Under the pieces are notes generated by a model. It did no database searches and was not told the origin of the DNA. It saw only the letters and a program-made list of their open reading frames with translations. This document shows, in pieces, positions 4,715 to 25,529 of a stretch of DNA of 32,000 nt; the stretch's first letter is position 1; the number at the start of each line of letters is the position of its first letter. The position numbers were made by a program, and so were the translations under genes. The DNA comes from Psychrobacter cryohalolentis K5 (GTDB lineage Bacteria > Pseudomonadota > Gammaproteobacteria > Pseudomonadales > Moraxellaceae). The DNA lies in the NCBI RefSeq assembly GCF_000013905.1, contig NC_007969.1:1980001-2012000 (forward strand), in the 5' to 3' direction.

Positions 4715-5413
4715 TTAATAAGCGTACTGATCACAGCTAGGTTGATCGCCATTATCACAAGCTTTACTATACCAATCTCTTGACTGCTTTTTATCTTGAA
4801 GAACACCTCTGCCCTCAAAGTACATTAAACCAAGACTATTTTGAGCTAAGGCATATCCTTGATTGGCCGCCTTCAAATACCATTTGGCTGCTTTTACGTT
4901 ATCCTTACTAACGCCAGCACCTTTTTCGTACATATCACCGATATTATTTTGAGCCCCAGCATCTCCTTGATAGGCAGCTTTTAAATACCAATCCATTGCC
5001 TGATCATAATCCTTTTTAATGCCTCTACCGTTATGATACATCCATCCAAGATTGTACTGCGCATCACCATACCCTTGATCAGCAGCTTTCCTGTACCATT
5101 CAACTGCTTTAACAGAGTCTTGACTAACGCCGTCAGCGTGCTCGTACATCCACCCAATATTAAATTGAGCCGATGCATTGCCTTGTTCTGCTGCCTTCTG
5201 ATACCACTCAAATGCTTTAGCAGTGTCTTGAGCAATACCACTACCTTCGTCGTACATCACACCAAGGTTGAATTGAGCTGATGCCCTCCCTTGATTAGCT
5301 TGTACACTCGTCGTAGTAAAGTCTGCTGCAACAACAGGTACTTCAAGCCCTACTAACAAGCCTAAAACTATTAACCTGTAAAGAAACATCTGCCTTAGCG
5401 TTTGTAGATTCAT
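4715..5413 (-). CDS. Secreted Sel1-like repeat (SLR/TPR-family) protein
   Basis: N-terminal signal peptide (LIVLGLLVGLEVPVVAA/DF) followed by five tandem ~36-aa repeats of the form AxAQxNLGxMYxxGxGVxxDxxKAxxWYxKAAxQG. Confidence 0.88.
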   Translation of the reverse strand: MNLQTLRQMFLYRLIVLGLLVGLEVPVVAADFTTTSVQANQGRASAQFNLGVMYDEGSGIAQDTAKAFEWYQKAAEQGNASAQFNIGWMYEHADGVSQDSVKAVEWYRKAADQGYGDAQYNLGWMYHNGRGIKKDYDQAMDWYLKAAYQGDAGAQNNIGDMYEKGAGVSKDNVKAAKWYLKAANQGYALAQNSLGLMYFEGRGVLQDKKQSRDWYSKACDNGDQPSCDQYAY

Positions 5414-5425: not shown

Positions 5426-6505
5426 TCAACTATCCAATATCTGGTCTGCTAAATAATCTGGCACACCTAAGAAGTATCCCTTCATCGTCATCCGATCAAA
5501 GCTATAAATATGAGCGTGAGGCGCTTCTTTACAGCGCCCTACCAACGGCGGCATTTGATCTGGCTTACCGTTAGCAAGCTCTATCAATCCTGAGCAAATT
5601 GGACAAGTTGCAGTAAACTCTGTGACTCTCGCTACATTCAGCCTATCTTTATCCCAATACATCTCAATATCCGCATTAACGACATTAATATTTGCAAAGA
5701 ACATAGGCGCTTTAATAACACGGTAATAAGGCAGTCTATATAACGGCACAAAGAAATATCGCCAATTAAGGTAAGCCAAAGGAATGAATGCCACAAAAAT
5801 TATGGCTTGCCAAAGCTTAAAATTTGGCAAATCGCTTAGTAATAAGATAACGAGTAACGAAAATATAGCAATAAGGATATCTACTAAAAAACTCAGCATC
5901 AGCAGAATCATTAGCAAAACGCCTCGAAAGCTTAAGATCTTTAGCTCACCCTTTTTGAAGAAAAGACGAGTGAATAAAGATGGCTTAATCTCAGAAGTCG
6001 CTTTGCGCTCATAAGTAATACTACTTAAATCCTCATCATCCTCATCATCCTTATCAGACTCAAAGACAGCAGATCCAGCTATCTGCTCTTCATCTACTTC
6101 CTCATTTTCAATAGCTTTAATGCTCATCCATACTAGGGTTCTGTTCTTAGCACCACCCTCTGACACAGATGAGATCACTTCTGGCAAATAACCTATATCA
6201 TTAAACGCCTGTTCACAGTCTGGTTGTGACTCAATAAACCTTATTAACTCTACATTTAATCTATCCGTTTTTATTTTGTTTTTAGCAATTTCACTGCTCA
6301 CAGTATTTTCATTTACGCCTCTAGCTTTGGCGTAAATAACTTGCCTCGATAACTTCTCAGGCTCAAAATCTTCGTCCGAATATTTCAGTTTGTTGAGCTG
6401 TGCGTCAACTATTATTCTTAGACAATGATCATAAAAAGTATTTCTTGGGAAATTAAGTAATTGTTTCTTGAGCTCTTCAAAGACATCTAAGTGTATGTTT
6501 TTCAT
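5426..6505 (-). CDS. Hypothetical membrane protein: soluble N-domain, acidic linker, 2 TM helices, C-terminal zinc-ribbon-like domain
   Basis: 359-aa ORF with a 12-nt gap to the Sel1 gene downstream. It has a DE-rich stretch DKDDEDDEDL and hydrophobic helices VLLMILLMLSFLVDILIAIFSLLVILLL and AIIFVAFIPLAYLNW. The C-terminal motif is CPIC-x20-C-x4-H-x-H. I recognise no family. Confidence 0.75.
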   Translation of the reverse strand: MKNIHLDVFEELKKQLLNFPRNTFYDHCLRIIVDAQLNKLKYSDEDFEPEKLSRQVIYAKARGVNENTVSSEIAKNKIKTDRLNVELIRFIESQPDCEQAFNDIGYLPEVISSVSEGGAKNRTLVWMSIKAIENEEVDEEQIAGSAVFESDKDDEDDEDLSSITYERKATSEIKPSLFTRLFFKKGELKILSFRGVLLMILLMLSFLVDILIAIFSLLVILLLSDLPNFKLWQAIIFVAFIPLAYLNWRYFFVPLYRLPYYRVIKAPMFFANINVVNADIEMYWDKDRLNVARVTEFTATCPICSGLIELANGKPDQMPPLVGRCKEAPHAHIYSFDRMTMKGYFLGVPDYLADQILDS

Positions 6506-6607
6506 AGGTAAGTACCGATTAAGACCCTATTATACCCCCAATAGCAGTCTGTTTTAGAGGCAGAATTCTTCTCATAATTACCTCACTCTTAACCAACTAA
6601 CAAGAGG

Positions 6608-7513
6608 ATGGTAACTATGTCAATGTCAATCGCTGTTAATGAGCAAAAGCAAATCGTCAATGTTAAGCAAGTCGAGCGAGGGCTGGCTTGTATGTGTTTT
6701 TGCTTTGAATGTGGTGAGCCTGTAGTGGCTCGTAAGGGTGACAAGAATGAGCATCATTTTGCGCATCTTAACAATAAAGAAAGCTGCACTATTCACCCTG
6801 AAAGCATCCTACACAAGTTTGCTAAGCAAGTCATTATGCAAGAGAGGTATTTAACGCTACCATCCCTACCTGATGATGAAAATAGCGAGGATAAAACTTG
6901 GGAGTTTGACCACCTAATCGAAGAGCAAGCTGTTAGCTGTATTCGACCGGATATAGTCGCAACGGTAGACGGGGAAATGATGTTTATTGAAGTTGCTGTG
7001 ACTTCTTTCATCGATACTGATAAATCAGATTTTATTAAGCAATTGGGTATCAAGACCGTTGAAATCGATTTGAGGGAAATCATCGCACAAGGTATTGAGT
7101 TGCCGAGTGAGGAAGCAAAGGTTCATATTTTAGACTGTGCCAGTAATAAACGGTGGATATTCCCAGCACCGAAATCTTTAACAATACCAGTAGCCCCTAC
7201 ACCATTACCTGAGCCTCTCTATAATTGCCAGAGCAGCACTGATGAGAATAGCAATGGAAGCTTTGACAAAGGCTATACGATCTATCGCTTTACCATCAAT
7301 CATGCTTGGGTCGACGTCAGAGTCTTTAATTCAGGCATGGTATCTATTAAGTGTGTGACCTACAACCATGATGTTATTGAAATACTAAAGCAATGGCGTA
7401 ACGAAGGCGGTGGTCAGTACAATCAAAAATATAAGTCATGGAATTACTTCAAACCATTTTCAGACACCGTCTTTCAGCGACTGCAAGAAATGGACATGAC
7501 CCCTACTGCTTAA
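6608..7513 (+). CDS. CoiA-like protein (N-terminal zinc finger + PD-(D/E)xK-type nuclease core)
   Basis: CFCFECGEPVVARKGDKNEHHFAH...C and ESILHKFAKQVI followed by IRPDIVATVDGEMMFIEVAVTS resemble the competence-protein CoiA family layout. The true start may be the ATG at 6617, 8 nt after AGAGGA. Confidence 0.65.
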   Translation: MVTMSMSIAVNEQKQIVNVKQVERGLACMCFCFECGEPVVARKGDKNEHHFAHLNNKESCTIHPESILHKFAKQVIMQERYLTLPSLPDDENSEDKTWEFDHLIEEQAVSCIRPDIVATVDGEMMFIEVAVTSFIDTDKSDFIKQLGIKTVEIDLREIIAQGIELPSEEAKVHILDCASNKRWIFPAPKSLTIPVAPTPLPEPLYNCQSSTDENSNGSFDKGYTIYRFTINHAWVDVRVFNSGMVSIKCVTYNHDVIEILKQWRNEGGGQYNQKYKSWNYFKPFSDTVFQRLQEMDMTPTA

Positions 7514-7548
7514 ATATGATTCTATTTGATAATACGGAGAATAAAACT

Positions 7549-8085
7549 ATGACACTCACTACTATGCTACTAATTACAATACTGCTGATATTAGCCATGC
7601 TTGTATGGGCTATACAACGGATACAATTACAAAATAAGGCTTTGCTACAAAGTGAACGAGATGTTGCGCAAATTAGGAACGATATGCTCGAAAGAGAAGC
7701 AGGCTTTCAACAGCAATTAGCAAAAGACATTAAAGAGGCTCAAAAGCGTTCCAACAATATGCAGCGCAATGTGCTAAAAGGTCAAATTGGCGAACAGTTC
7801 ACGCCCTTTATTACTGACTTTCCTTACAACCCTTCAGACTGCCGATTCATGGGTGAACCGATTGACTACGTCATCTTCCAAAACTTGCATGAATGCGCCG
7901 ATGGCAACGTGCCTATCGAGGACGTGCATCTCATTATTGCAGAAGTTAAAACAGGGAATGCTAGGCTAAACCAACGGCAGAAGATTATTAAACAAGTAAT
8001 CGAAAATGGGCAGGTTAGCTTTAAAGAGCTTAGGATAAAACACTGTGAAGATACGGAAGATATGCGTGTGAATGTTAGTGCCTAG
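7549..8085 (+). CDS. Membrane-anchored endonuclease related to archaeal Holliday-junction resolvase (COG4741 / Endonuc_Holl-like)
   Basis: I chose the ATG at 7549, preceded by ACGGAGA, instead of the track start at 7438, which overlaps the upstream gene. The protein has an N-terminal TM (MTLTTMLLITILLILAMLVWAI) and a coiled-coil segment. It continues GEQFTPFITDFPYNPSDCRFMGEPIDYVIF...IIAEVKTGNARLNQRQK, which matches that family as I remember it. Confidence 0.75.
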   Translation: MTLTTMLLITILLILAMLVWAIQRIQLQNKALLQSERDVAQIRNDMLEREAGFQQQLAKDIKEAQKRSNNMQRNVLKGQIGEQFTPFITDFPYNPSDCRFMGEPIDYVIFQNLHECADGNVPIEDVHLIIAEVKTGNARLNQRQKIIKQVIENGQVSFKELRIKHCEDTEDMRVNVSA

Positions 8086-8239
8086 TTCAGTCTTTCTATT
8101 CACTCCAACCTTTATATATACAGTCTCTATAATCTTCTTAAAACATATTTACTGGAAAAATAAAGACCATTCATTAATCTCTAGGGAGACACTTAAGTAA
8201 TTGTTTTATATAGATATTTAATGATAAAAATTCCATTAA

Positions 8240-8268
8240 TAGTCTTTTTTAATGAAAAGACTATTTTT
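8240..8268 (+). terminator. Rho-independent terminator after the Hjc-like gene
   Basis: tagtctttt-ttaatg-aaaagacta forms a 9-bp stem followed by ttttt. Confidence 0.6.
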
Positions 8269-8823
8269 GCAACAGCATTAATCCTAAATAAAACACGATA
8301 CATTCTTAGTCAAAATGTATTAATCATAGAAGCATGACAGTTGCAAGTATATGACATTCATTACCAGCAAATTCAATTTCATATAAAGGGGATTTTCATC
8401 AATGATATATATAGGGGCTATTTAAATAGTACAAACAATCGTATAAAGTTATCCAAGGTAGAAGCTGAAAATTTATCATACTTCAATAAAATTAAACGAC
8501 CAGCGCTAGATCTTATATCAAATCAAATACATGTTGAGTTGTTGGAAAAACCAGCACGTGAACAGTTATCTATCTCAAAGTCAGCTTAGTGACCTAATAC
8601 TAAGGATTTCTATCTAACTCCGAGCATTCTACTATTAACTTGTCAGATTCTTATCTACAAGTTAATACATCTGAAACACCCTACAAAAACTCTTTCCAAG
8701 ATTATATTGAGCTATTGCAAGTATTATAACAAAGTGAACCTTAATACACTCAATAATACTACATGTACATTAATATGATATATTATCATGGAAACCACAA
8801 TATTTTGTTAAAAGTGACTTAAT

Positions 8824-10559: not shown

Positions 10560-10585
10560 CCGTCTCACTTTTAAGTAAGACGGTT
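10558..10585. terminator. Hairpin between the convergent Toprim-like gene and alpA (possible bidirectional terminator)
   Basis: aaccgtct-cacttttaagta-agacggtt, flanked by an A-run on the left. Confidence 0.5.
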
Positions 10586-10595
10586 CACTTAATAA

Positions 10596-10847
10596 CTAAG
10601 CTGATCTTGCTTCAATTTTTTCATTAATCCACTCTGCAATCTCACTTGCTACCCAAGCTACCCTCACTTGTGTCAGTTGCACCTTTTTAGGGAACGTTGG
10701 ATCATATTGAGCAGAATTTACATCGGCCATTGCATAGATAGTCGAGCGGCTGATACCTGTATATTCTTTAACGGCTTTGAGGCTAAGTAGCTGAGGAATA
10801 TGGTTGCATTGCTCAATAAATGGTTGTGCTATATTTAAGTTTTCCAT
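10596..10847 (-). CDS. alpA: AlpA-family HTH regulator/excisionase
   Basis: 83 aa. LSLKAVKEYTGISRSTIYAMAD...FPKKVQLTQVRVAWVASEIAEWI has the typical Phage_AlpA pattern. Confidence 0.85.
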   Translation of the reverse strand: MENLNIAQPFIEQCNHIPQLLSLKAVKEYTGISRSTIYAMADVNSAQYDPTFPKKVQLTQVRVAWVASEIAEWINEKIEARSA

Positions 10848-10957
10848 GATTATCTCCTTGTGAGTGAATGAGAGCGTCTGTTCTCATACAGTTACGGAGT
10901 CCCATATTTATTTACGGCGTCCTATGCTGTCCTAACGCTTCCCTTATTTAAAGCAAT

Positions 10958-10985
10958 AAAAAAAAGAGCTGGATCATCCAGCTCC
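10958..10985 (-). terminator. Rho-independent terminator downstream of the 11016 gene
   Basis: The minus strand has gagctgga-tga-tccagctc followed by tttttttt. Confidence 0.7.
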
Positions 10986-11015
10986 CTCTTATGTTGCATA
11001 TGAGCTTTAACCACT

Positions 11016-11927
11016 TCAGCTCACAACAGTCACGCTCTGCCGTAGACCTTGTTCAATGCTATTCACGTTATGAGTTACTAACCCATTCTGATAGCTACCC
11101 TGCTGATTGCTACTGACGTCATCTGTCTCAACTGGATAAAACTCTTCAGCGACTTCTGCTAGATCATCAGCATCAATCTCAAAGCATGAATTCACATAGC
11201 CTTGTCTTGCAGCCTGCTCTAATGCAGCCTGATCAAAGCCGTGTTCACTAAGCTCTGCATCTATCGCTTGCGCATCCTGCACCGCTTGCTTAAGTGTCAC
11301 ACCATCACGCAAGGTTAAATCCACAAAGTAAATTGGGGTGCGATAGCTTTGTGTCGTGCTTTTGCCTCTCAAGGTTAATTGCAGTGGCAAGCATGAAAGC
11401 TTATTACCGGATACTGCTGCAAAGTAGCTGAGCCTTGCTGCTAGTGTGCGAATACTATTAAAGCCAGTTGTCCGAAAGATGAATGTGCCCAGCTCATCGT
11501 CCTCAGAGAGATTGGCGTACAGTCTGCCATACGGCTTACAAGCACCGCCTTGCGCCAGTGGACAGCGATCAGGCGATGGGCAGGGATGGCTTTCAACGCC
11601 TTTACTGGTGCGCCGCTGACACTGCTCACCGTCACCGACGCATAGTGGGCGTCCGGTCTGTCTATCAAATAGCGTGTACTCAGCTCGTAGATTAAGCTCA
11701 GGATCGTTAAACAGCATGCGAACTGGTATTTGCCGCAGCTTGCCTTCATTATTTGCGCGTAGCTTTTCATCGAGTGGATGATTGATCCAGCCATCCTTGT
11801 TTTGAACTTGGCTGGTAATCGTAAATTGATCGTCTTTAGCAGGTAAGCGTTTGCCATCTTTTACAATGACACGCCCAATGCTGATACGACCTAAAACTGG
11901 CGGGGTAATAGTGAGACCTTTAATCAT
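11016..11927 (-). CDS. Conserved island protein with a Cys-rich putative metal-binding centre (often annotated 'hydrolase or metal-binding protein')
   Basis: I chose the start at the ATG at 11927 (MIKGLTITPPVLGRISIGR), 7 nt after AAGGAA. The longer track ORF would overlap the terminator of the upstream gene. The Cys cluster reads CVGDGEQCQRR...HPCPSPDRCPLAQGGACKPYGRL. Confidence 0.65.
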   Translation of the reverse strand: MIKGLTITPPVLGRISIGRVIVKDGKRLPAKDDQFTITSQVQNKDGWINHPLDEKLRANNEGKLRQIPVRMLFNDPELNLRAEYTLFDRQTGRPLCVGDGEQCQRRTSKGVESHPCPSPDRCPLAQGGACKPYGRLYANLSEDDELGTFIFRTTGFNSIRTLAARLSYFAAVSGNKLSCLPLQLTLRGKSTTQSYRTPIYFVDLTLRDGVTLKQAVQDAQAIDAELSEHGFDQAALEQAARQGYVNSCFEIDADDLAEVAEEFYPVETDDVSSNQQGSYQNGLVTHNVNSIEQGLRQSVTVVS

Positions 11928-11960
11928 GGTGATATTCCTTTTGTGTTTTATTTTAGCCAT

Positions 11961-11987
11961 AAAAAAGCCCACCTGTGATAGGTGGGC
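11961..11987 (-). terminator. Rho-independent terminator after the YqaJ gene
   Basis: The minus strand has gcccacct-atcac-aggtgggc followed by tttttt. Confidence 0.7.
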
Positions 11988-12051
11988 GGTTATGCGCGTA
12001 TTTGATTGAGTGGATTAATTTATGGATTATGATTGATGACGGATTATTGGC

Positions 12052-13176
12052 TCAGTTATCGTTAAGGATGACAAAGCGACGACTGCCTTGACGGGTTTTA
12101 CTAAACTGCTCGAGCAACTCAGGATGCGCTTTGGTTAGTGCTTTACTATCAAGACTGACACTGTCTTTAGAGCGCTTCCAAGAGATAGCGCCTTTCTTAA
12201 ATACCGCAATCTCATTGTCTTGAATTAAGCTTTGCAGTTGATGCTTCACTTGGTCATGACGCTGCTCTAACTCTTGCATATAGTCACGGTAGCTAAGCAA
12301 TTGCTCAAACAGTTTATTAGCACCGTCATCATCCGTTAGATCAACTTTGCTTGAGGGCTCAGGGGTTGGATAAAGCTGTTTTAATGCTCTTGCTGCGGAT
12401 TCCGAATGATCAGGAGTTGGAGGCGTGTCCGTTGCTACGTATTGCCAGAACAGATGCTCATGCTCCATGATGGATGCAATCAAGTATTCATCACGCTCAA
12501 CTTTATAAATCTTCGCTTCGTGTCCACAAAGCAGAACGCAAATATGCGCCGCAGCTTTACCCGTGACCGCCAGTTGATGTTGTACTTGGCAAGTGACATA
12601 GAGCGGTACGCCATGCTTCCATAGCTTGGCACCATGTTCACCAGCAGTTTTACATTCCAGTATCTGTACCTCGTCATTACCAGTGATTGCATAGTCTAAG
12701 TTCGCCAGCATAAATGGCTGCTCAGGATGCTGCAAGATGGCATTGACGCGGCGCACCTTATTGCCGGTATGCTCTTGATAGTATTTAGCGACCATCGGCT
12801 CTAAGGTATTGCCCCAATACAATGGCGAGTACCCTTCGATGCTCTCATCGATATCAGAGTCGATACGACCGGTCTTAATCATCCATAGCTCCAGCATAGA
12901 CAAATAAGGATGGATACCACAAGCGGCAGCAGCATCAGAGCTGCCAATACCTTGTCTGCGTACTTGTAGCCAGTCCTCATGGCTCAAAGATTTGGTATTG
13001 ACCAAACGTTTAGCAGTGGTTGATTGATGAGCAGACGGCTTAACGGGTTTGCTCTCTAGCTTGGACTTCGGCATATCTTCGATACCATGCTTAGTCTTTA
13101 TTGGCGTCTTAATCTTAACAGTAGTGCGCTTGGTGTGTCTTGGCTGAGTCGTCGTGTTTAATGCGATCATGTTCAT
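12052..13176 (-). CDS. YqaJ-like viral recombinase/exonuclease domain protein with a basic N-terminal extension
   Basis: RRQGIGSSDAAAACGIHPYLSMLELWMIKTG is the hallmark YqaJ N-motif. Later acidic/Lys motifs (ILECKTAG) fit a PD-(D/E)xK exonuclease. Confidence 0.85.
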   Translation of the reverse strand: MNMIALNTTTQPRHTKRTTVKIKTPIKTKHGIEDMPKSKLESKPVKPSAHQSTTAKRLVNTKSLSHEDWLQVRRQGIGSSDAAAACGIHPYLSMLELWMIKTGRIDSDIDESIEGYSPLYWGNTLEPMVAKYYQEHTGNKVRRVNAILQHPEQPFMLANLDYAITGNDEVQILECKTAGEHGAKLWKHGVPLYVTCQVQHQLAVTGKAAAHICVLLCGHEAKIYKVERDEYLIASIMEHEHLFWQYVATDTPPTPDHSESAARALKQLYPTPEPSSKVDLTDDDGANKLFEQLLSYRDYMQELEQRHDQVKHQLQSLIQDNEIAVFKKGAISWKRSKDSVSLDSKALTKAHPELLEQFSKTRQGSRRFVILNDN

Positions 13177-13234
13177 AGTGAATTCCTTCGTTAGATTGGT
13201 TATGGGTTAATACTGTTTATTAAAAAGGCGACAT

Positions 13235-13261
13235 AAAAAAACCACGCTCAAGGGCGTGGTT
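13235..13261 (-). terminator. Rho-independent terminator after the DUF932 gene
   Basis: The minus strand has aaccacgcc-cttga-gcgtggtt followed by ttttt. Confidence 0.7.
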
Positions 13262-13292
13262 GATTGTATTGTCAGGTTTTAAACGTCGATAG

Positions 13293-14285
13293 TTAGGCCA
13301 GCATCAGTAGCGATTCCTCTAAGCCCTTTTGCTTAAGCTTAGCGCCAGAGCCAAACCAAGCGCCATCTAATCGATGGTCTCTAGACATCGCCCTACGTTC
13401 ATGATCAACGTACTCCGTAATGCTGCACAGCAAACCGTAAGCCGTATCACGAGCGGCGTCGAGTGTGGCACCGCGTCCTTGACCGTTAAACATCTGCATC
13501 ACTTGATTCATCGCTTTAGCATTAGGCACAGCGTCTTTCTCTTTCTTAGCACGGTTAAATAAAATGATGTCATTGTCCTGATCATTGAATACACGGCTAA
13601 GATAATTGGCTGCTTCTGCTTGGGTGACACGGCGCTCTGATAGCTGCTTCATCTCATAAGCGTGCTCATCCCATTGTTTGACGGATACACCTAATTGCTG
13701 CTTAACCTTATCGGCATCAAAGGAGGTGGAATGCGGTACTTTCACCATGCCGCCATTGCCGTTGGCAAGGCTGATCGCTAGAGTGTTATTACAGACCACA
13801 CGAATAGAGGTGAACTGAGCAGTAGTCGCTAACGTCCCATCACAAGCCGTTGCCAGCAAGAGATAGCCATTACTGACATCTTTACCTTTAAGCGTTGCTG
13901 ACTGGCCTGTACGTGCTAATGCCCATAGCTTACGCCCGCCCTTTAGAACACCTGCGGTCTCAAGCTCAAAGTCCGATTGCTCGGTAAGATCACGATAGAA
14001 TTCTAAAATCTCACGCGGCTGTACTTCCTGATAGCGCTGGCTAACAACAGATAACGGCTCAAAGTTATCGCTACGGTACAACACCTTTTGCTCAGCAAAG
14101 GGCAGAATCAGATTGTGCCCTTTATCATTACTAGCCATGTAGCTGACGTCCGATGATTCAATACGCCAGTCCATACCTGCTTGCTTTGCCCAGATCTCGA
14201 TAGGCTGCTTGGGAGCCAGCTCGTTTCCAAGACCGTGCCAGGGCGTGTCACCGACGTAGGCAATTGATTCTAATAAATGTGCCAT
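13293..14285 (-). CDS. DUF932 (phage/plasmid-like protein, TIGR03299-type)
   Basis: 330 aa. The N-terminus MAHLLESIAYVGDTPWHGLGNEL and overall length are typical of DUF932 proteins of integrative elements. Confidence 0.8.
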   Translation of the reverse strand: MAHLLESIAYVGDTPWHGLGNELAPKQPIEIWAKQAGMDWRIESSDVSYMASNDKGHNLILPFAEQKVLYRSDNFEPLSVVSQRYQEVQPREILEFYRDLTEQSDFELETAGVLKGGRKLWALARTGQSATLKGKDVSNGYLLLATACDGTLATTAQFTSIRVVCNNTLAISLANGNGGMVKVPHSTSFDADKVKQQLGVSVKQWDEHAYEMKQLSERRVTQAEAANYLSRVFNDQDNDIILFNRAKKEKDAVPNAKAMNQVMQMFNGQGRGATLDAARDTAYGLLCSITEYVDHERRAMSRDHRLDGAWFGSGAKLKQKGLEESLLMLA

Positions 14286-14335
14286 TATAATTTTTCCTTT
14301 TAGATTTGATTATGAGTATTGGTTATAGGGGTGCT

Positions 14336-14626
14336 TTAGATGGTGAAGGTTCTTGAGCAGGTATTGCAGGTATAACTAGGCTTTACTGCCAAAACGAGTA
14401 AGGGTGGCTGCTGTAGCTTGTCTTTAGCCAAGCTGATTGCAGAAGCAAGCGCCGTGCCTACGACCACACCGATTGCTGAATTGATTTTGTAGTACCTACA
14501 GATGCTTACACCAAGACCTGATAGGGCAGATTGTGAGCACAGTTGCTCGAAGATATTAAAGGGGCTGTCAGTATCCGTATTGCTTTTTACGTTCGCTGAA
14601 TGACAGTGTGGGCAGATCGGTCTCAT
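14336..14626 (-). CDS. Small hypothetical protein with a split zinc ribbon (CPHC...CNTC) and a central hydrophobic segment
   Basis: 96-aa ORF with CxxC pairs at both ends and the hydrophobic stretch AIGVVVGTALASAISLA in the middle. Confidence 0.5.
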   Translation of the reverse strand: MRPICPHCHSANVKSNTDTDSPFNIFEQLCSQSALSGLGVSICRYYKINSAIGVVVGTALASAISLAKDKLQQPPLLVLAVKPSYTCNTCSRTFTI

Positions 14627-14652
14627 AAATTGCTCCTTTTTCGATTGCGCAT

Positions 14653-14681
14653 AAAAAAGGCCTGCAATTAAGCAGACCTTT
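14653..14681 (-). terminator. Rho-independent terminator after the Gp2/YfjJ-like gene
   Basis: The minus-strand RNA folds as AAAGGUCUGC-UUAAUU-GCAGGCCUUU, with one U-G wobble, followed by UUUU. Confidence 0.65.
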
Positions 14682-14760
14682 GATTAGGATGAATTAGGGT
14701 TAAACAGACAGGTAAGCTAGGCTTCATGTCTTATCTCATAGGGATAGTATATACCTGAGA

Positions 14761-15675
14761 TTATTTTACTATGGGCGGTAGTCCGCGACGTTTAGAGGTT
14801 CTATAAATACCATGACCAAAGGTGCGCATGTTTGGTAGCCACAGTTTAAGTTGCTGCTCATCTTTACTTGGCTTAGTTAAATATAAAGCTGAAGCTATAG
14901 CGTTTTCGACTTCCTGAGGGTTATCACGATGAATCATGCCGATACCTAATTTGCCGTATTGTTGGTACTTCTGCTTACGCTCTGGATCGTGGTAGTTATA
15001 GTACTCACCTAAACCCGCTGTAATCATTTTCCATTTTTCACCAATCTCTTTAGCTAGATACCAGTCATTGTCCCTTTTCGAGCCATCGAACATCAACAGT
15101 AAATGACAGTGTAATCCACCGTTCACTCCTCCTTGCTCAACTGCCCAAGCATTGCCATGCAAATGCTCAAAGCAAGTTTTCTTATTACCGATAAGCTCCC
15201 GTAGCTTATTCATGTGATCATCAAAGTTCTCGATAGATACATGGTGGCTCGTCTGCTGTGCGTATTTTAAATCGATACGCACAAATAGTAGTCTTGAGTA
15301 GTGAGTAGTGAGATTACCTACGTAATTCGCTAAATTATTTCTATTTTGCGACTCCTGATAGCTAAACGTAATGCGTTCACGCTCAATATCATTTCTATAG
15401 CAGGATAACGTAGCGATAAACCGCTGGGTTTTATCATGATCCCAGACGACGTCAATTGGATATGATTCACCAACTATAGCGTTGGTGCTATATACAAATG
15501 CGACAACCGGCTGTGAATAAAATAGCTCAGTATTGAAGTGTGTCATGAACGGATAATACAATCCGTTCAGTTGAGTTTTGACATCATCAAAGCTTATGGT
15601 ATTTGCCAATATGGCTGTGACCAGATTATGGACATTAGCAACAACTTGAGGTTGGTTGAAGTTTGAATACGGCAT
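14761..15675 (-). CDS. Inovirus Gp2-type / YagK-YfjJ family protein
   Basis: 304 aa. LLFVRIDLKY, GGLHCHLLLMFDG and the C-terminal LYLTKPSK region match the YfjJ/YagK family seen in CP4-like islands. Confidence 0.78.
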   Translation of the reverse strand: MPYSNFNQPQVVANVHNLVTAILANTISFDDVKTQLNGLYYPFMTHFNTELFYSQPVVAFVYSTNAIVGESYPIDVVWDHDKTQRFIATLSCYRNDIERERITFSYQESQNRNNLANYVGNLTTHYSRLLFVRIDLKYAQQTSHHVSIENFDDHMNKLRELIGNKKTCFEHLHGNAWAVEQGGVNGGLHCHLLLMFDGSKRDNDWYLAKEIGEKWKMITAGLGEYYNYHDPERKQKYQQYGKLGIGMIHRDNPQEVENAIASALYLTKPSKDEQQLKLWLPNMRTFGHGIYRTSKRRGLPPIVK

Positions 15676-15739
15676 GATTGTGATCCTATTAAGTTAATGT
15701 TCATAGGGTCAGGTCAGTCCGTATTTTTATAATGTTGGC

Positions 15740-15762
15740 TGCTGAGAGGTCAGCTCTCAGCA
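15740..15762. promoter_or_regulatory. 9-bp inverted repeat upstream of the Gp2/YfjJ-like gene (possible operator)
   Basis: tgctgagag-gtcag-ctctcagca. No T-run follows on either strand. Confidence 0.35.
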
Positions 15763-15997
15763 TTAGAATAAAGCACCTAGTATATTCAATAATATAAATA
15801 ACCCACTAAGCATGAGCTGCTGTAGTGCAGCTATTTTCCAACTAGCATTGGAGAATGACGTAAGGACTAATTGGAAATTGCCTTATGCTACAAGCCGATG
15901 GTTTGAATGGAGTTAGCATTTTTAGATATGTAACATTTTAGGTATGTTTTATAAGCTCAAGCTCTTATTCTGTGGTAGGATACCTTGAGAATACAAT

Positions 15998-16030
15998 ACG
16001 TTTTAATAACGTTTTAATAACGTTTTAATT
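15998..16030. repeat. Three perfect-to-near-perfect tandem 11-bp repeats (ACGTTTTAATA x2, ACGTTTTAATT)
   Basis: Read directly from the sequence, 53-85 bp upstream of the ATG at 16083. Confidence 0.9.
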
Positions 16031-16082
16031 GCCATTTTTTAGTTAACTAAAGTCTGGTTTTTATTATTTTGGAGATAGAAAG

Positions 16083-17681
16083 ATGAGTGAAGCTGAGGCT
16101 CGAACTGAAGTTAAGCGGTTAAATCGGACTCAAAAAAATGCAGAATATATCGAAAAGAAGATCAATAGTCTTAGTTTTTATAGCGCCTATTGGTGTTTAT
16201 TTGAATTGCGATCTTTATATGCACTCTCTGAAAAACAGATTTTAAGAGACGACACTCGCGTTAAATCAAAGTTAATTCATATCTTAAAAAAGGCAAACTG
16301 TAACCCTAAAAAATTGGATGAAATCTTACAGACGAGCGCTGACGAAAGCATACCTCTATCCTACGTCAGATGGTTTTATGAAGACGACAGAGCGGCTTTA
16401 TGGATAAATATGGTTTTGAAAAAATATAATGCAGCGAGCGATTATATACAAACAAAATCAGACATTGCGATTTTTGCCCATAACCTTATTTTCAATTCAA
16501 ATATTCGTATTTCAGGAAGAGAAATTCATATAGGGTCTGATTCTTACAACGACGCTTTAGTACTGAATAAAAAACAAGTTTTAGGTTTTTTAGAACAAGC
16601 TTACGTTCGTAGTAAAGTTGGCTTAGGGAAAACAAAATGGATGGATAGTCGCAATGATATTCAGGTTAATCATTTATACCAGTATATGCAAAAACCCTGC
16701 GAACTTATTAAGCTAAACGTTGTTACGTTCAGTCCTAGCCAAGCTTTGATTTGTGCTGATACTATTGCTATAAAAGAATCAGATAGGGTTAGTAGGCTTA
16801 ACCATATGCTGGCTTCACTAGATTATTGGATGTTTGATACTTATTGGTTTAATGAAGATGGTGTCGTGCTAGGCAAGGACAATAACAGAAGTAAGTTTCT
16901 AGAGATGATGAAGAATGTCTCCAATTCAAAAGCTAACCGTATTAACGATAAAAATATAAAGAAAAAAGGCTTAGTACTTACCAGTGCAAACAAGAAAACC
17001 CTCAGTCTGATTGCTAAAAGACAAGGTAAAACTCGAGCGCAAATGCTTAACGATATCGTTGCCAGCTACAACCAAACTTTTTTCTCCGAAGTACCTAAAA
17101 CCACTAGAGCTACTGGTGCTTATATAACGGGCGACTATGGAAAACCATATACAGACACATTTGAAACGCAGCAAAGCCTAAAAGCTAAACAGGCTAGCTC
17201 TGAGACTATGTTAGTAGATAGTGATAGCGAGGAGAATACAGAAGATGTTCCTGGCACTGATATATTAGAACCAGCAACAGGCATTGAACGTAAAAACCGC
17301 AAGTGTGTTGAATATGCTGAGATTGATGAATGCGTTAAGAACGATGAGCAAATCGAGAATGACAAGCAAGTCAAAAATGCTAAACCAAAGGATTTCGATA
17401 ATCGATGTAAAAACTTAGAAGACGCTGATAATAGTGCTACTGGCAAATTAACAGATGAACTCATTCTTGCTATCACTCCAAGCAAAAACATTGATACACC
17501 TGTAGACATCTCTACAATTGAAACTGTACAGCCTGTGACTAGCTCACATGATACTGAACATATTTCAGCTTCAGATGAGAATCTTCACAACATTGATGAT
17601 AAAATATATGATGACGATCCTTTTTTGATAAACGCCAGGCTTATAAGCAAAAGGCTGGAAGAACATAAGCAAACCAATTAG
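16083..17681 (+). CDS. Hypothetical 532-aa protein with an acidic, low-complexity C-terminal third
   Basis: Long ORF preceded by GGAGATAGAAAG. The internal segment KKTLSLIAKRQGKTRAQMLNDIVASY looks ribbon-helix-helix-like. I recognise no family. Confidence 0.7.
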   Translation: MSEAEARTEVKRLNRTQKNAEYIEKKINSLSFYSAYWCLFELRSLYALSEKQILRDDTRVKSKLIHILKKANCNPKKLDEILQTSADESIPLSYVRWFYEDDRAALWINMVLKKYNAASDYIQTKSDIAIFAHNLIFNSNIRISGREIHIGSDSYNDALVLNKKQVLGFLEQAYVRSKVGLGKTKWMDSRNDIQVNHLYQYMQKPCELIKLNVVTFSPSQALICADTIAIKESDRVSRLNHMLASLDYWMFDTYWFNEDGVVLGKDNNRSKFLEMMKNVSNSKANRINDKNIKKKGLVLTSANKKTLSLIAKRQGKTRAQMLNDIVASYNQTFFSEVPKTTRATGAYITGDYGKPYTDTFETQQSLKAKQASSETMLVDSDSEENTEDVPGTDILEPATGIERKNRKCVEYAEIDECVKNDEQIENDKQVKNAKPKDFDNRCKNLEDADNSATGKLTDELILAITPSKNIDTPVDISTIETVQPVTSSHDTEHISASDENLHNIDDKIYDDDPFLINARLISKRLEEHKQTN

Positions 17682-17849
17682 TACTGATAGTAAAGCTATC
17701 AGATCTCTGTTACGAAATTACTATAAAACTGAAAAACTAATCTTAAGTATACTCACAAGTATACCGAACTATACTTCTAAATATTTATCCTTATATATCA
17801 AATACTTAATATCATACTACCGTTCCGGCTCCGGGTACCATTATATTGA

Positions 17850-17880
17850 AAGGCTTCCAAGAAATTGGAAGCCTTTTTCT
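17850..17880 (+). terminator. Rho-independent terminator
   Basis: aaggcttcca-agaaat-tggaagcctt followed by tttct. Confidence 0.7.
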
Positions 17881-18239
17881 TATTGTATATCATTAACTTT
17901 CTGTAGCTACCTCTTACCTCTACTATCAGCAGATTATGCTGTAATTCTAATGAGAAATTCAGGCATAAAAGTCAACAAGCGCTTTAATACTATCTTATTC
18001 TCTATCGTTACGTGTTCTATGAATAGACATAGATTATATCCTCTAAATTATTAATCGATTGAAATAGCATCACTTTATTTATTTAGAAAGTACTAGCTAA
18101 TGATAGCCGTTAGATAACACAAAGCCTTATTCAACCTGCTTGTTTCATACAAGTTTTTTAGCTACAGTTAAAATTCCTATATTAAATAATGACGATGAAC
18201 CGTCAAATAAAAACAATCTTTCATAAGCTGGAGTACATT

Positions 18240-18749
18240 ATGGAGCTAAAGCTGAATGAGCTCTCCGATAAAAACAATTTAAATAGTCATCATGGCGAGC
18301 ATATTATCCTGCGTCTAACTTATGTTAGCCGCTATAACACCGAAAATTCAAATATCGAAGTAGCACGTATTCTTGAGCAGGCGCAGCGTAATAATGAGCG
18401 CAATGGTATTACTGGTGCATTAGTAATTAATGAAAACTATTTTCTCCAAGTTATTGAGGGCGCAAGACCAGTTATTAACAATCTGTTAAAAAAATTGATT
18501 GAGGATAAGCGACATTTTTCTTTGCAAATTATTGAGTGCCGTGAAATTGAGGAACGGTATTGGAATAAATGGTCAATGAAATATTTAACGGCTAATGATC
18601 AGAATAAAGAATATGTTATGAAATATTCAGCCAGCAATGAATTCAACCCTTACCTAATGAGTACTTCTCAAATTACAATGTTTATAGACAAGTTATCAAA
18701 ACTTCAAGAACGACAAGAAAAACGCGAGTCTAAGATGAAAAAATCTTAG
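18240..18749 (+). CDS. BLUF-domain blue-light photoreceptor (short, BlsA-like architecture)
   Basis: LRLTYVSRY...NNERNGITGALVINENYFLQVIEGARPVINNLLKKLIEDKRH...WNKWSM carries the conserved Y, Q and W/M positions of BLUF. I chose the start at ATG 18240, 7 nt after GGAG; the track start is 18189. Confidence 0.85.
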   Translation: MELKLNELSDKNNLNSHHGEHIILRLTYVSRYNTENSNIEVARILEQAQRNNERNGITGALVINENYFLQVIEGARPVINNLLKKLIEDKRHFSLQIIECREIEERYWNKWSMKYLTANDQNKEYVMKYSASNEFNPYLMSTSQITMFIDKLSKLQERQEKRESKMKKS

Positions 18750-18820
18750 TTTTTGACCAGACGATTAGAATGGGTATATTTTATAGGTAAGAACAACTTA
18801 ATCGTCTGTTGTATAGCCTA

Positions 18821-18923
18821 CTATATAAGACGCTATACCCCTATATACCTGAAAAACGCCCAAAATAAAGGGCTAACAGTCTATGACGGTCAGCCCTTTA
18901 TCGTTGTTTGGTGGAGATGGCGG
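18821..18923. repeat. Distal direct repeat (att-type) copying the last 15 nt of tmRNA, its terminator and ~40 further bp
   Basis: Aligns with 28198-28310. There are perfect blocks of 53 bp (18850-18902) and 19 bp (18905-18923), four substitutions and one 10-bp indel. Identity stops exactly where the tmRNA body continues in the other copy. Confidence 0.92.
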
Positions 18924-19235
18924 AAACTAAACTATAAATATAAGTCATTGATAATAAACGTTATTAATTATTTTAAAATAGACGATACCAACCATAATAC
19001 CAACAATCGTTTTTTATTTTACTGTTATTCAGTGCCTACCCTATCAACTAAAGATTATTTTGTAATTATTTACCGTTTCAACATGCTAGGGCGGTGCTCT
19101 CTTACGATACCTGTGCATAAAGTCACTTTAACTTTTTAACATGGCTTTAACCTACTAATGATCGCTACAATTCATACGCCTACGTTACTTGTCGCAAAAG
19201 TCGCTTTAACTTCTTTTTGAAACGGTTTTTTTCTT

Positions 19236-19585
19236 GTGCGTGTGAATGGTGGCGGTGTCCTCTGTCGATACGCTCAGCACTCAAAATACTACCCCCCTCA
19301 CTTGTCCGTAAATTACCCCTTTTATGGACTCCAAGTATTATCTTGGCTGCTCTCTAAGATGTCCGAAAACTAGCCAGCATTGGCATAAGCTGCACCTGTG
19401 CGCGTACTGTGCCCATAACTCTAACGTGTGTAATAACCTCCCTCGTACTTGTTAAGAAACTACCCCTTTTATGGACTCCAAGAACCCCCGTCATTGGTGC
19501 TTGCTTCGCGCGTGTGCGTACTGTTCCATAAAGTCATTTTTGACCCTGCTTATGATGTCCGAAAATTACCCCTTTTTATGGACTC
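19236..19585. repeat. Three degenerate ~105-150-bp tandem units, each with a GTGCG-TACTGT-CCATAA box and a GTCCGTAAA-N7-TTTATGGAC palindrome
   Basis: Palindrome boxes lie at 19303-19335, 19450-19482 and 19556-19585, with partial copies at 19360-19372, 19921-19934 and 19991-20017. GTGCG boxes lie at 19236-19260, 19398-19418 and 19513-19533. Confidence 0.8.
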
Positions 19586-19650
19586 GCAAAATTGGATAAC
19601 CCCAAGACTGGGGGCATCTATTCCAGCGTTTAGCGGTGTGTGACTTGGTT

Positions 19651-19915
19651 TTCAATGTAAGGTTTTATAAGGTTTGCGATATGTGGTTTTCTAACGTTTC
19701 AATGTGAGGTTTTATGAGGTTCTACTATGTGAGGGTTCAGGTTTTCTCAGGTTCTCAATGTTAAGTTTTATTAAGTCGGTACTGTCTGCCAATGTTAACA
19801 AATGACAACATGCAAATTGGTTTTGAATGTACGGTTTTGACATGTTATAGACCACAAGTTTTGACAGGTTCATTACTTCGTGTTTTCATTTTGAATGTTG
19901 GGTTTTGTTAGGTTC
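19651..19915. repeat. Array of ~9 degenerate 21-28-bp iteron-like units, consensus TT(C/G)AATGT-NNNG-GTTTT-R-NNNG-GTT
   Basis: Units lie at 19651-19675, 19698-19722, 19727-19754, 19754-19777, 19789-19812, 19823-19846, 19851-19871 and 19891-19915. A further copy is at 20200-20226 and an inverted partial copy at 20161-20180. Confidence 0.8.
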
Positions 19916-20287
19916 TACGATGTCCAAAAACCTAGGGGAAACCTTAGTTTCTTTACACTATAAAAAGGGCTTGGTAGTGATCGCCTAACGTGTCCGAAAA
20001 CTAACCCTTTGTATGGTCAATACGTCCAAAAGTGGACTTATCTATTTTGTTTGACGGCTCTATCCTGTTTTGGTGGCATCATGGCACTGTAGGCTAACGC
20101 TTACCCCATTGGGGGTTATGCAATCGGTAAAACGTGGTAAAAAGAATTATGCTTTTAAACCTTAACATTTATTAACATGCTGGCAGTCGGCAAACTGGTT
20201 TGAATGTTAACTTTTGACAACATGCAGACCGTGAGTATCGAGCGCAAAACCTTAGGGTTTCCTTAGGGTATCTTTACACTATAAAAA

Positions 20288-20310
20288 AAGGCAGACGATA
20301 AACGCCTACC
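20288..20310 (-). terminator. Weak hairpin + T-run just downstream of the primase-helicase stop
   Basis: The minus strand has taggcg-tttatcg-tctgcc followed by ttttttt. The stem is short (4-5 bp, one wobble). Confidence 0.35.
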
Positions 20311-20331
20311 CTTTGTTAAATCATTAATTAA

Positions 20332-23067: not shown

Positions 23068-23177
23068 TTAGTCCCCCTTGCTTGTGACTGGTTCGGCTTG
23101 CGCTGCTCTCTATATTTTTTATAGTAGCTTTTGCGCTTAGCGTGCTTACGGCTTTGCTTTGGTGGGTAGGTTTTCAT
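23064..23177 (-). CDS. 37-codon very basic micro-ORF, translationally coupled on both sides
   Basis: The minus strand reads ATAATGAAAACC. The TAA of the upstream gene shares its last A with this ATG (23177-23175). The frame gives MKTYPPKQSRKHAKRKSYYKKYREQRKPNQSQARGTK, and its TGA overlaps the primase ATG as ATGA (23067-23064). It is below the ORF-track length cut-off. Confidence 0.45.
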   Translation of the reverse strand: MKTYPPKQSRKHAKRKSYYKKYREQRKPNQSQARGTK

Positions 23178-23767
23178 TATTTACCCTCCTTGCCGTAACT
23201 GGTCATTGCTAGGGTTTCTTTGATTGAATTTACCCGTCTTAGTAATAAGTCGTCCCACGTTACAGTGGCATCATGCGTCAGTCGCGCCATTGATATAGCA
23301 GTGTGAGTGTCTATTTTTTTGTAGTGAATAAGGGCTAACAGCTTGCCAATGTCACTTATAACGATAGCAGCACTCTCTATGTCACAAGCAATATCTGATA
23401 ACTCAAAGACTGACATAACAACAACTTCTTTATCGTCTGCTTCGGTTAGGTCTATTACTGTGCGTTGGTTTGATTGGGTAGTAGGTGCGCCACTGTATAG
23501 CGTGGCTATTGCTTGGCGGTTTGCTGGCGTGTCATGGAATAGTGAGGGTAAGACGTAGCAGTCATCATGATAAGCCCTACCATCAGCGCGATATAGGCAC
23601 TCAACATTGCCAATATTGATGGTTAGGCAGTCTTTTGACTTTTGGACTAGCTTATATGTGCCATTGCCCACAGACGGACACAGAACGCTATCACCTGCCT
23701 TGAATGTGGCTGGTGTGCTGTTGGTAGTGGTTTGGGTGTTTGAGGTCGTACGGATTGATTTACCCAT
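23177..23767 (-). CDS. Hypothetical protein (196 aa)
   Basis: ORF in the operon whose start overlaps the stop of the upstream gene by 8 nt. I recognise no family. Confidence 0.65.
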   Translation of the reverse strand: MGKSIRTTSNTQTTTNSTPATFKAGDSVLCPSVGNGTYKLVQKSKDCLTINIGNVECLYRADGRAYHDDCYVLPSLFHDTPANRQAIATLYSGAPTTQSNQRTVIDLTEADDKEVVVMSVFELSDIACDIESAAIVISDIGKLLALIHYKKIDTHTAISMARLTHDATVTWDDLLLRRVNSIKETLAMTSYGKEGK

Positions 23768-24290
23768 GATGGATAGCTCCTACTAATTTATGAGTTAATG
23801 CCACGCTATACGGTAAAAGTATAGGGTGACGGGTCTTACTCTCGGTCTTAGTAGTAACCGCCCTGCATATTCGCCTTACGGCTATTTTATTTTGCAGCGT
23901 CAACCCGTCATAGTCGGTTAGCAAGTGACTTGCTATAGATATGATGGTTTGCCCCCTTGTGGCGCTTAGGTGCGCTTGTGGGGCTGTGCTTGAATGGATA
24001 GTGACAGCTTGAGAGGCTGCGCTATTATCAGGCACAAAAAAAGCCAATAATTTACGACTTGGCACGTCGCTACTAATTTTCGAGAGGTCTATATAGTAAC
24101 CATTGTTGGTATTGGTTGCAATCTGTTTTGCTTGTACTGGTTGGCAAGCAATTAATGATAGTAGCAAGCCAATACCTGCTACCCATGCCATGAATATGAT
24201 AAAGCTAAGTAGTAAGCCGCGCTTATGTGGCTGTGTGCGATTGTGTGCCCCGTGGCTGGCTTTTAGACTGGTTCTGTTATCGTTGGTCAT
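23760..24290 (-). CDS. Putative lipoprotein (176 aa)
   Basis: Signal-anchor LLLSFIIFMAWVAGIGLLLSLIAC with the lipobox-like LIAC. It overlaps the upstream gene by 14 nt. Confidence 0.6.
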   Translation of the reverse strand: MTNDNRTSLKASHGAHNRTQPHKRGLLLSFIIFMAWVAGIGLLLSLIACQPVQAKQIATNTNNGYYIDLSKISSDVPSRKLLAFFVPDNSAASQAVTIHSSTAPQAHLSATRGQTIISIASHLLTDYDGLTLQNKIAVRRICRAVTTKTESKTRHPILLPYSVALTHKLVGAIHHG

Positions 24291-24558
24291 TTCTTACGTC
24301 CTCCACGTTGAAAGCGATTTCTGCAATGTTTTTCGATAGCTCTTTTAATGACTCCACTTGTCGGCTGCCTGTCGGTAACAAGCTGCCTAACATTTTTACT
24401 TCTATTTCTGCTAATTGGGTCATGGTGTTAATGATGGTCACATTGGCGTGCAAGGTAATGATGAGCTGGTCGATAAAGCCATCAGGCATCATCAGCACGC
24501 CTTGTTCTTTCAACCCGTCCATGACTTGATTTATAAAGGTGTCATCACTCATAGTCAT
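24277..24558 (-). CDS. Hypothetical protein (93 aa)
   Basis: ORF in the operon, overlapping the upstream gene by 14 nt. Confidence 0.55.
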   Translation of the reverse strand: MTMSDDTFINQVMDGLKEQGVLMMPDGFIDQLIITLHANVTIINTMTQLAEIEVKMLGSLLPTGSRQVESLKELSKNIAEIAFNVEDVRNDQR

Positions 24559-24832
24559 TCACCTTGATTTCAGGCAGTAATATAAGCTGCTCCATGATGC
24601 CCTCGCTTGTTTCCTCAGCATGTTGGCTTATTCTGAATAAAGCGGACTGTACGGCTGTTAGAACGCCTTTACTGGTGGGGTCATCTGCTAATGCCGTGTT
24701 TAGTGCATTGAGGGCATAACCTAAGCTCTCACACTCGCTTGAGTAACTTTGAATATAGTCATCTACTACGCTAAGCATATGGCTATCTACTGCCACTAGG
24801 CATGGTTCTAATCTGTCGTTTGATTGGCTCAT
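24545..24832 (-). CDS. Hypothetical acidic protein (95 aa)
   Basis: ORF in the operon, with a 4-nt ATGA-type overlap with the upstream gene. Confidence 0.55.
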   Translation of the reverse strand: MSQSNDRLEPCLVAVDSHMLSVVDDYIQSYSSECESLGYALNALNTALADDPTSKGVLTAVQSALFRISQHAEETSEGIMEQLILLPEIKVNDYE

Positions 24833-25083: not shown

Positions 25084-25086
25084 GAT

Positions 25087-25377: not shown

Positions 25378-25432
25378 TGTGTGTAGCTCCACTAAATGAC
25401 GCTACGGTATGTAACGTCCAGTGGTTCTACTT

Positions 25433-25511: not shown

Positions 25512-25529
25512 TGTCTAATCATGGTTATA

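Follow-up and report, generated by a model that had tools for sequence, protein, structure and literature searches.

A 32,000-nucleotide (nt) window from the chromosome of Psychrobacter cryohalolentis K5 (NC_007969.1, positions 1,980,001 to 2,012,000, forward strand) contains two co-directional genes, here called gene 1 and gene 2, which encode a zinc-finger protein with a nuclease-like core and a membrane-anchored Endonuc_Holl protein, respectively. An earlier note on this DNA had described the two open reading frames (ORFs), 35 nt apart, as a functional unit in which a sensor nuclease works with a membrane-tethered effector nuclease. The coordinates and the spacing were confirmed (Table 1), but the proposed unit did not hold up: the partner that is kept beside gene 1 is a gene on the opposite strand, up359, which encodes a predicted inner-membrane protein and adjoins gene 1 divergently in 57 of 58 distinct full-length loci. 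We read genes 1 and 2 as the plus-strand half of a three-gene cluster whose core is probably the divergent up359-gene 1 pair, a candidate defence or anti-mobile-element module. The pair appears to behave as a mobile defence gene set that occurs in varied defence islands and on plasmids of Gamma- and Betaproteobacteria. We give this reading as a whole, together with the mechanism and the role of gene 2 proposed below, a probability of roughly 0.55.

Conservation of the divergent pair and of gene 2

Relatives of gene 1 were collected at 80 loci in a one-genome-per-species scan, and the loci were then searched with tblastn and profile hidden Markov models. About 61 loci encode a gene-1 relative of similar length, and 58 distinct full-length gene-1 proteins were placed in a neighbour-joining tree, which carries no support values and is approximate. 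The only one of the 58 loci without an up359 relative (L106) lies on a contig that ends just upstream of gene 1. The divergent adjacency persists to about 30% identity (29-33%), and the hosts of the pair include Psychrobacter, Moraxella, Acinetobacter, Pseudomonas, Stutzerimonas, Pseudidiomarina, Methylotenera, Azonexaceae, Thauera and Thiocystis. Exceptions among the roughly 61 loci are L007 and L008, which retain a 44-amino-acid (aa) remnant of up359, L042, where gene 1 is broken, and L060, which has a different architecture; in L017 and L021 up359 is split by an insertion sequence (IS) element. Gene 1 is intact where up359 is deleted or IS-split (L007/8, L017 and L021), which argues against gene 1 being a toxin that needs up359 as its antitoxin. 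Distant gene-1 relatives that consist of the zinc finger and nuclease part only (L062-L080) have neither up359 nor any other conserved neighbour. Outside the Moraxellaceae no third conserved gene was found, and recurrent Metallophos and McrC-like genes were confined to Acinetobacter lwoffii-type loci. One locus (L022) comes from a record titled Streptomyces cinereus JCM 3040 (BMPS01000038.1); its arrangement and its per-gene identities to the window agree with those of locus L021 from Moraxella osloensis, and it is therefore probably a contamination of the Streptomyces assembly.

Gene 2 stands next to gene 1 in 18 of the 58 loci, all of them within one Moraxella/Psychrobacter clade (Psychrobacter and Moraxella osloensis-type) that also contains several losses. 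It is absent from the remaining 40, which include the entire Acinetobacter, Pseudomonas and betaproteobacterial clades of the tree. Beside an intact gene 1 it has been lost or has decayed in L006, L013, L015, L007-9 and L017-20, by a frameshift in L006 and an internal deletion in L013, and with a remnant left in L015; many of its database relatives are fragments of 98-135 aa. The earlier note had named a lack of conservation of genes 1 and 2 as neighbours as the finding that would speak against them as a unit, and the outcome is divided: the neighbourhood is conserved in one clade, is absent from the rest of the tree and has been repeatedly lost within that clade.

A self-contained defence system made up of genes 1 and 2 alone, with a sensor nuclease and a membrane-tethered effector nuclease, now appears improbable. 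The two genes are indeed co-directional and 10-35 nt apart, their adjacency outlasts the divergence of gene 2 to 46% identity, and both lie within a defence island. Gene 2 is nevertheless missing or degraded at the loci listed above, every trio also has up359 wherever the contig extends upstream, and a promoter-like site lies directly 5' of gene 2. Somewhat better placed, yet still unlikely, is the proposal that gene 2 is functionally unrelated to gene 1 and represents a general membrane-anchored Hjc/YraN-like nuclease that became linked to the pair by chance in one lineage. Endonuc_Holl genes with about 50% identity to gene 2 (P0299, P0300) are solitary and lie among housekeeping genes, beside map/thyA/folA, accBC or recA, and the possible promoter of its own as well as the frequent loss of gene 2 would fit the same explanation. 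Against it, gene 1 has fallen to about 55% identity and gene 2 to 46-57% without loss of the tight same-strand spacing, and an unselected linkage is unlikely to survive such divergence. Trios of up359 on the minus strand followed by gene 1 and the Holl gene on the plus strand thus recur too persistently for the link to be accidental. Under the reading centred on up359 and gene 1, gene 2 would be an add-on second nuclease, self-anchored in the membrane, that the Moraxella/Psychrobacter lineage gained a single time. The core can probably do without it, as gene 2 is frequently missing or damaged beside a persisting pair. A linkage of gene 2 with AbiL was considered and rejected: AbiL follows gene 2 in several Psychrobacter loci and is absent from the M. 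osloensis trios.

The signals around the three genes were examined in the window. The ribosome-binding site of gene 1 (AAGAGGA, 6600-6606) is too near the annotated start at 6608 and homologues begin with MSMSIA, so that the ATG at 6617 is the likely start; gene 2 is preceded by GGAG, 8 nt 5' of its ATG. The suggestion that genes 1 and 2 form an operon stands as far as orientation and spacing go, but its status is uncertain because a promoter-like site with 10 of 12 consensus matches (7491-7520) immediately precedes gene 2. The terminator that had been placed at 8240-8268 was borne out as a stable hairpin with 12 base pairs, mostly A-U, and a UUUUU run behind it (inverted repeat I2 of the repeat scan), with a folding free energy of -13.4 kcal/mol and a z-score of -4.5; none of 200 shuffled sequences was equally stable. 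The consensus terminator scan missed this hairpin because it has fewer than three G-C pairs. The same kind of scan gave no sigma-70 match in the divergent intergenic region, which is conserved within Psychrobacter (alignment A4) and 89-97% identical to L001, in contrast to the adjoining DNA for the N-terminal domain of up359, which is only about 60% identical.

Table 1. Features of the window and of related loci, with coordinates in nt of the window unless another locus is named
Feature	Coordinates	Strand	Residues	Remarks
Gene 1	6608-7513	+		301 aa; likely true start 6617
Gene 1, CoiA_N zinc finger	6689-6793	+	28-62	
Gene 1, PD-(D/E)xK-like core	6797-7162	+	~64-185	
Gene 1, linker			about 189-221	disordered, variable
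Gene 1, C-domain	7271-7501	+	about 222-298	conserved, alpha/beta
Gene 2	7549-8085	+		178 aa; Endonuc_Holl/COG4741
up359	5426-6505	-		359-aa predicted inner-membrane protein
up359, N-domain			1-131	helical, ends in beta-hairpin (AlphaFold2 model)
up359, linker			134-156	acidic, disordered (AlphaFold2 model)
up359, two transmembrane helices			193-221, 231-261	long, hydrophobic
up359, predicted Zn-ribbon C-domain			263-345	beta-rich (AlphaFold2 model and alignment A3)
Divergent intergenic region, up359/gene 1	6506-6616			presumed site of both promoters
Terminator-like hairpin and U-run	8238-8270	+		AT-rich; ~155 nt downstream of gene 2
Sel1-repeat protein gene	4715-5413	-		between BREX and up359
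Gene-1 relatives with replaced C-domain	L049 3886-4824, L050 6907-7947, L054 8182-9030			three Moraxella species
Gp3-like directionality factor	11016-11972			island
YqaJ exonuclease	12052-13176			island
DUF932 protein	13293-14285			island
YfjJ-like protein	14761-15675			island
BLUF blue-light sensor protein	18189-18749	+		inside island
DUF927 protein	20332-23067			island
AlpA	25087-25392			island
P4-type integrase	26891-28132	-		island
tmRNA (ssrA)	28296-28654	-		island integration site

Domain layouts of the three proteins

The CoiA-type zinc finger that had been noticed in gene 1 was recovered as a match of residues 29-62 to Pfam CoiA_N (PF25164; E=3.3e-7, 30.1 bits against a cut-off of 26.3). 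Of the two Pfam models that had been proposed as checks, PF10107 matched gene 2 and PF06054, the CoiA nuclease domain, did not match gene 1 up to E 0.1; nor did gene 1 match any NCBIfam or PHROG model. In alignments of 17 and 51 homologues (A1 and A2), the zinc-finger positions C28, C30, C32, C35, H49, H50, H53 and C60 are invariant, as are E65, H69, K70, K73, D115 (in RPD), E128 (in FIEVAVT) and K139 in the core. The suggestion of a PD-(D/E)xK-like core is in keeping with the invariance of D115 and E128 and with the AlphaFold2 (AF2) model (mean predicted local distance difference test score, pLDDT, 80.5), in which the zinc finger and an alpha/beta core occupy residues 1-185. When this model was compared with the PDB using Foldseek, the top ranks were almost all PD-(D/E)xK nucleases, among them SfsA, the R2 restriction-like endonuclease, Bax1, Hjc, RecU and HincII, although all matches were weak (best E=9e-3) and had low TM-scores. 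The model is thus consistent with a PD-(D/E)xK fold. A search of PDB sequences with the gene-1 profile returned nothing up to E 10. The position of the canonical lysine of the ExK motif is occupied by Ala130, so that gene 1 counts as a putative nuclease; judging from the alignments, K70, K73 or K139 may substitute for the missing lysine.

The C-terminal extension of about 100 aa, which the earlier note could not place, proved to be a conserved domain with a block comprising W234, G243, W263, G269, P283, R291 and L292 (A1 and A2), and it is modelled as a compact beta3-alpha-beta2-alpha fold at residues 223-295, behind a disordered linker that spans 190-219 in the model. In three Moraxella loci an unrelated domain, beta-rich and about 100 aa long (NPVF.VVGLHKSKGTFNNYGRSIDYDN...), stands in its place, while up359 is kept. 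The C-terminal module of gene 1 is therefore swappable.

Gene 2 bears out its earlier description. It matches Pfam Endonuc_Holl (PF10107) with E=1.6e-28 and 100 bits against a cut-off of 23.8, and a hydrophobic N-terminal transmembrane (TM) helix (residues ~4-21) is followed by a long helix. The E-(V/I)D-E(V/I)K motif and an N-terminal TM helix are hallmarks of COG4741 (PMC1189080), and direct reading of the gene-2 protein identifies the motif as E82, I105-D106 and E132-V133-K134. Gene 2 is thus clearly predicted to encode a minimal PD-(D/E)xK nuclease that is anchored in the membrane and has an intact catalytic motif.

The protein encoded by up359 has no Pfam, NCBIfam, PADLOC or PHROG match, its profile found nothing among PDB sequences up to E 10, and Foldseek searches of the PDB and BFVD with its AF2 model (mean pLDDT 78.9) gave no match with E <0.1. 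Matches of the N-domain to the winged helix of RepE were too poor (probability 0.16) for it to be called a winged helix-turn-helix domain. In the C-domain, C301, C304, C325 and H332 are invariant and H330 is 90% conserved (A3), within the consensus TCPIC...GKPDQ..PLVGRC.EAPHAHVYSFDR. Topology was judged by eye from the sequence: basic residues flank both TM helices on their outer sides and the loop between the helices is short, and the N- and C-terminal soluble domains would therefore both be cytoplasmic, with up359 crossing the inner membrane as a hairpin. An exhaustive profile search gathered 540 family representatives at 50% clustering, 298 of them at E<=1e-10; full-length matches have about 320-365 aa and always reach the C-terminus, and shorter ones are fragment-like.

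The two halves of up359 evolve at very different rates. Compared with the proteins of L001, L002 and L005, the N-domain is 56-58% and the C-domain 82-88% identical, and the gene-1 protein is 93-100% identical. In the comparison with L001, DNA identity is about 97% as far as the up359 start codon, and precisely there it drops to about 60%. This collapse suggests that up359 alleles have been shuffled against a near-constant gene 1, and such shuffling would fit an N-domain that serves as a specificity or sensor module.

Genomic contexts and proposed role of the pair

At 61 loci the survey took in four genes to either side of the pair. The 426 flanking genes fall into 296 clusters, and the neighbourhood of the pair is therefore not conserved as such. 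Most neighbours nonetheless belong to defence, with restriction-modification of types I, IIG and III, McrBC, Gabija, BREX and AbiL represented. In a first batch of non-redundant neighbours the commonest Pfam families were ResIII, DEAD, SWI2_SNF2, HSDR_N, N6_Mtase, Methylase_S and HsdM_N, and MmeI, DNA_methylase, BrxA and McrBC were also present. A second batch was more mixed, with frequent ORC-CDC6-like proteins, AAA_15 and phage integrases, and with DNA methylases and OLD-type TOPRIM proteins also listed. PADLOC counts on the pooled neighbours were dominated by redundant GajA models and were taken qualitatively. Gabija GajA/GajB adjoins the pair in Methylotenera (L057), and a type IIG restriction-modification (RM) enzyme lies beside it in Pseudomonas jinjuensis (L041). 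Its neighbours in Thiocystis (L059) and Metapseudomonas (L051) include a type III restriction enzyme and a type II methyltransferase, respectively. The pair was found on two plasmids, a 310-kb Acinetobacter plasmid, where it lies beside McrC and a type III RM system (L100), and the 15.6-kb Psychrobacter plasmid pA18P2, where it occurs without gene 2 beside replication genes. No protein match to the pair was found in phage records, and a megablast search of plasmids with the DNA of 6400-8400 gave no match.

The plasmid loci raise the possibility that the pair serves the mobile element itself, as an addiction module, in exclusion, or in the processing or replication of element DNA. The rep genes beside it on pA18P2 and the position of the window pair inside an integrative island would suit such a role. 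So would a distant gene-1 relative (26% identity, annotated as hypothetical; L101, 5956-6810) that lies between hha and repB on the Klebsiella pneumoniae plasmid NZ_CP069846.1 and has similar matches on >1100 Klebsiella plasmid records. We consider this explanation rather improbable: gene 1 stays intact at loci with a deleted or disrupted up359, contrary to what is expected of a toxin-antitoxin pair, most loci are chromosomal and have RM, Gabija or McrBC genes, not replication modules, around them, and the Klebsiella relative consists of the zinc finger and nuclease part only, with neither up359 nor the gene-1 C-domain.

In the reading that we prefer, with up359 and gene 1 as a candidate defence pair, the up359 protein would hold or license the nuclease, a soluble protein, at the inner membrane. 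Its fast-evolving N-domain would recognise a cue derived from the invader, the invariant zinc-ribbon domain would couple this recognition to the nuclease, and the gene-1 protein would in turn cleave foreign DNA as it enters or replicates. Nuclease activity, membrane regulation or anchoring and sensing by the N-domain are predictions; what was observed is the conserved adjacency, the mobile and defence-rich contexts and the domain layouts. More tentatively, and with somewhat less than even odds, we hypothesize that up359 and gene 1 constitute an unnamed, widespread two-gene anti-phage or anti-plasmid system, in which the diversifying N-domain detects invasion at the envelope and the zinc ribbon licenses the CoiA-finger nuclease, and to which the Moraxella/Psychrobacter version adds a further Hjc-like nuclease that is anchored in the membrane.

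Several points weigh against the defence reading. The nuclease fold of gene 1 depends on the weak Foldseek matches described above, and Ala130 occupies the canonical lysine position even though D115 and E128 are invariant. Allele shuffling means that up359 and gene 1 tolerate partners that are only 67% identical, and the divergent transcription would suit a regulatory role of up359 as well. Ordinary chromosomal contexts occur at some loci, such as L081 with a two-component system and PPK2, and the figures for defence neighbourhoods are counts from about 60 loci rather than a genome-wide enrichment.

If the pair does protect against phage or foreign DNA, it would add a new component family to bacterial immunity and a further case in which nuclease control is linked to the envelope, with the variable N-domain of up359 as a natural handle for identifying the trigger. 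There are many candidate defence systems, and modules of nuclease genes in defence islands are of a known kind; what is new is a partner family without earlier description. What makes this one a clean, testable candidate is the conserved divergent arrangement, combined with a new family of membrane zinc-ribbon proteins and its hypervariable N-domain. The locus also counsels caution in arguing from guilt by association, as the conserved partner of gene 1 is the divergent gene and not the obvious neighbour on the same strand.

Related systems and the surrounding island

No named defence system was recognised in genes 1 and 2, as had been anticipated: in PADLOC gene 2 had no match and gene 1 a single faint one, to DruB (E=0.023), and no description of the up359-gene 1 pair was found in the literature. 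The DruB match is non-significant and aligns the zinc-finger part of gene 1 (6608-6784) with positions 1-53 of the DruB1 model; it is possible that Druantia DruB starts with a zinc ribbon of the CoiA type. Among validated systems the nearest is PD-lambda-4, an anti-phage system formed by the ATPase PD-lambda-4A and PD-lambda-4B (Vassallo et al. 2022; PMC9519451). PD-lambda-4B has a CoiA-type N-terminal zinc ribbon, with an HHpred match to PF06054 over residues 1-66 (PMC9519451). The likeness to gene 1 is confined to this CoiA-like zinc finger, and the partner in PD-lambda-4 is a P-loop ATPase, whereas up359 is a membrane protein without an ATPase domain. Neither gene 1, gene 2 nor up359 gave a PD-lambda-4 match in PADLOC-DB v2.0.0, which we take to include the PD-lambda systems.

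Kiwa combines a membrane protein with a cytoplasmic effector (KwaA/KwaB), and Shield combines a TM component with an RmuC nuclease. The up359-gene 1 pair shares with them, by analogy only, the general logic of a membrane component that is paired or fused with a nucleic-acid-targeting effector in a defence island, but its domain contents and divergent gene order differ, and PADLOC and Foldseek revealed no sequence or fold relationship. Gene 2 clearly belongs to the membrane-anchored Hjc/YraN-like nucleases of COG4741/Endonuc_Holl by its TM helix, minimal core and E-(V/I)D-E(V/I)K motif. This family is mostly solitary and functionally uncharacterised, and only the sub-clade of gene 2 is linked to a CoiA_N nuclease and up359.

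CoiA itself, the D-loop resolvase of transformation in Bacillota, has a CoiA_N finger followed by a PD-(D/E)xK-type nuclease, an order that gene 1 appears to share. It could be argued that gene 1 is a genuine competence protein: it has the CoiA_N domain, NCBI names its relatives 'competence protein CoiA family protein', and Moraxellaceae are naturally transformable. Gene 1 nevertheless lacks a match to CoiA_nuc (PF06054), has another C-terminal domain and an obligate membrane-protein neighbour, and occurs sporadically in another phylum, in Gamma- and Betaproteobacteria, on defence islands and plasmids rather than in a competence regulon. Moreover, CoiA has been reported to be restricted to Bacillota, with YraN filling the corresponding role in Proteobacteria, Acinetobacter among them (bioRxiv 10.1101/2024.02.06.579203). 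Given this restriction and the missing CoiA nuclease match, a role of gene 1 in competence is very unlikely, to the point of being negligible. The family label is thus misleading for the proteobacterial proteins that bear it, which share only the zinc finger with CoiA.

The earlier note had placed genes 1 and 2 between a type 1 BREX operon and an ATPase/Toprim pair of the abortive-infection type. Genes of both flanks were found, and the Sel1 gene and up359, which lie between BREX and gene 1, had been overlooked. The BREX side has BrxA (1.5e-51), BrxB (1.7e-41) and a cut BrxC; of the type 1 set brxA-brxB-brxC-pglX-pglZ-brxL the products PglX, PglZ and BrxL would fall beyond the start of the window. 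On the other side PADLOC matched both components of AbiL, the ATPase AbiLi (5.5e-74) and AbiLii (1.6e-18). The Sel1-repeat protein has an N-terminal signal peptide, its gene lies 12 nt downstream of up359, and it matches phrog_8741 with E=2e-76; it was rejected as a core partner, being next to up359 in only four Psychrobacter loci (the window, L003, L006 and L010). Between gene 2 and AbiLi, an 82-aa ORF (8341-8589, plus strand) is what is left of the 3' end of a gene for about 300 aa. The intact version is present in L006 (12224-13129) and L021 (12735-13631, minus strand), in each case as a pair with a gene for a DUF3944 protein of some 240 aa; the two may form another small module that is deleted in the window.

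The whole cluster is cargo of a genomic island integrated at ssrA. The entire stretch 10560-28654 belongs to this island, and on the right of ssrA the core genes abhydrolase, GDPD and aroC follow. Apart from the tmRNA and the hairpin downstream of gene 2, scans of the region for Rfam families and repeats gave no hits. The island also carries the gene for a BLUF blue-light sensor protein, an unusual cargo for such an element.

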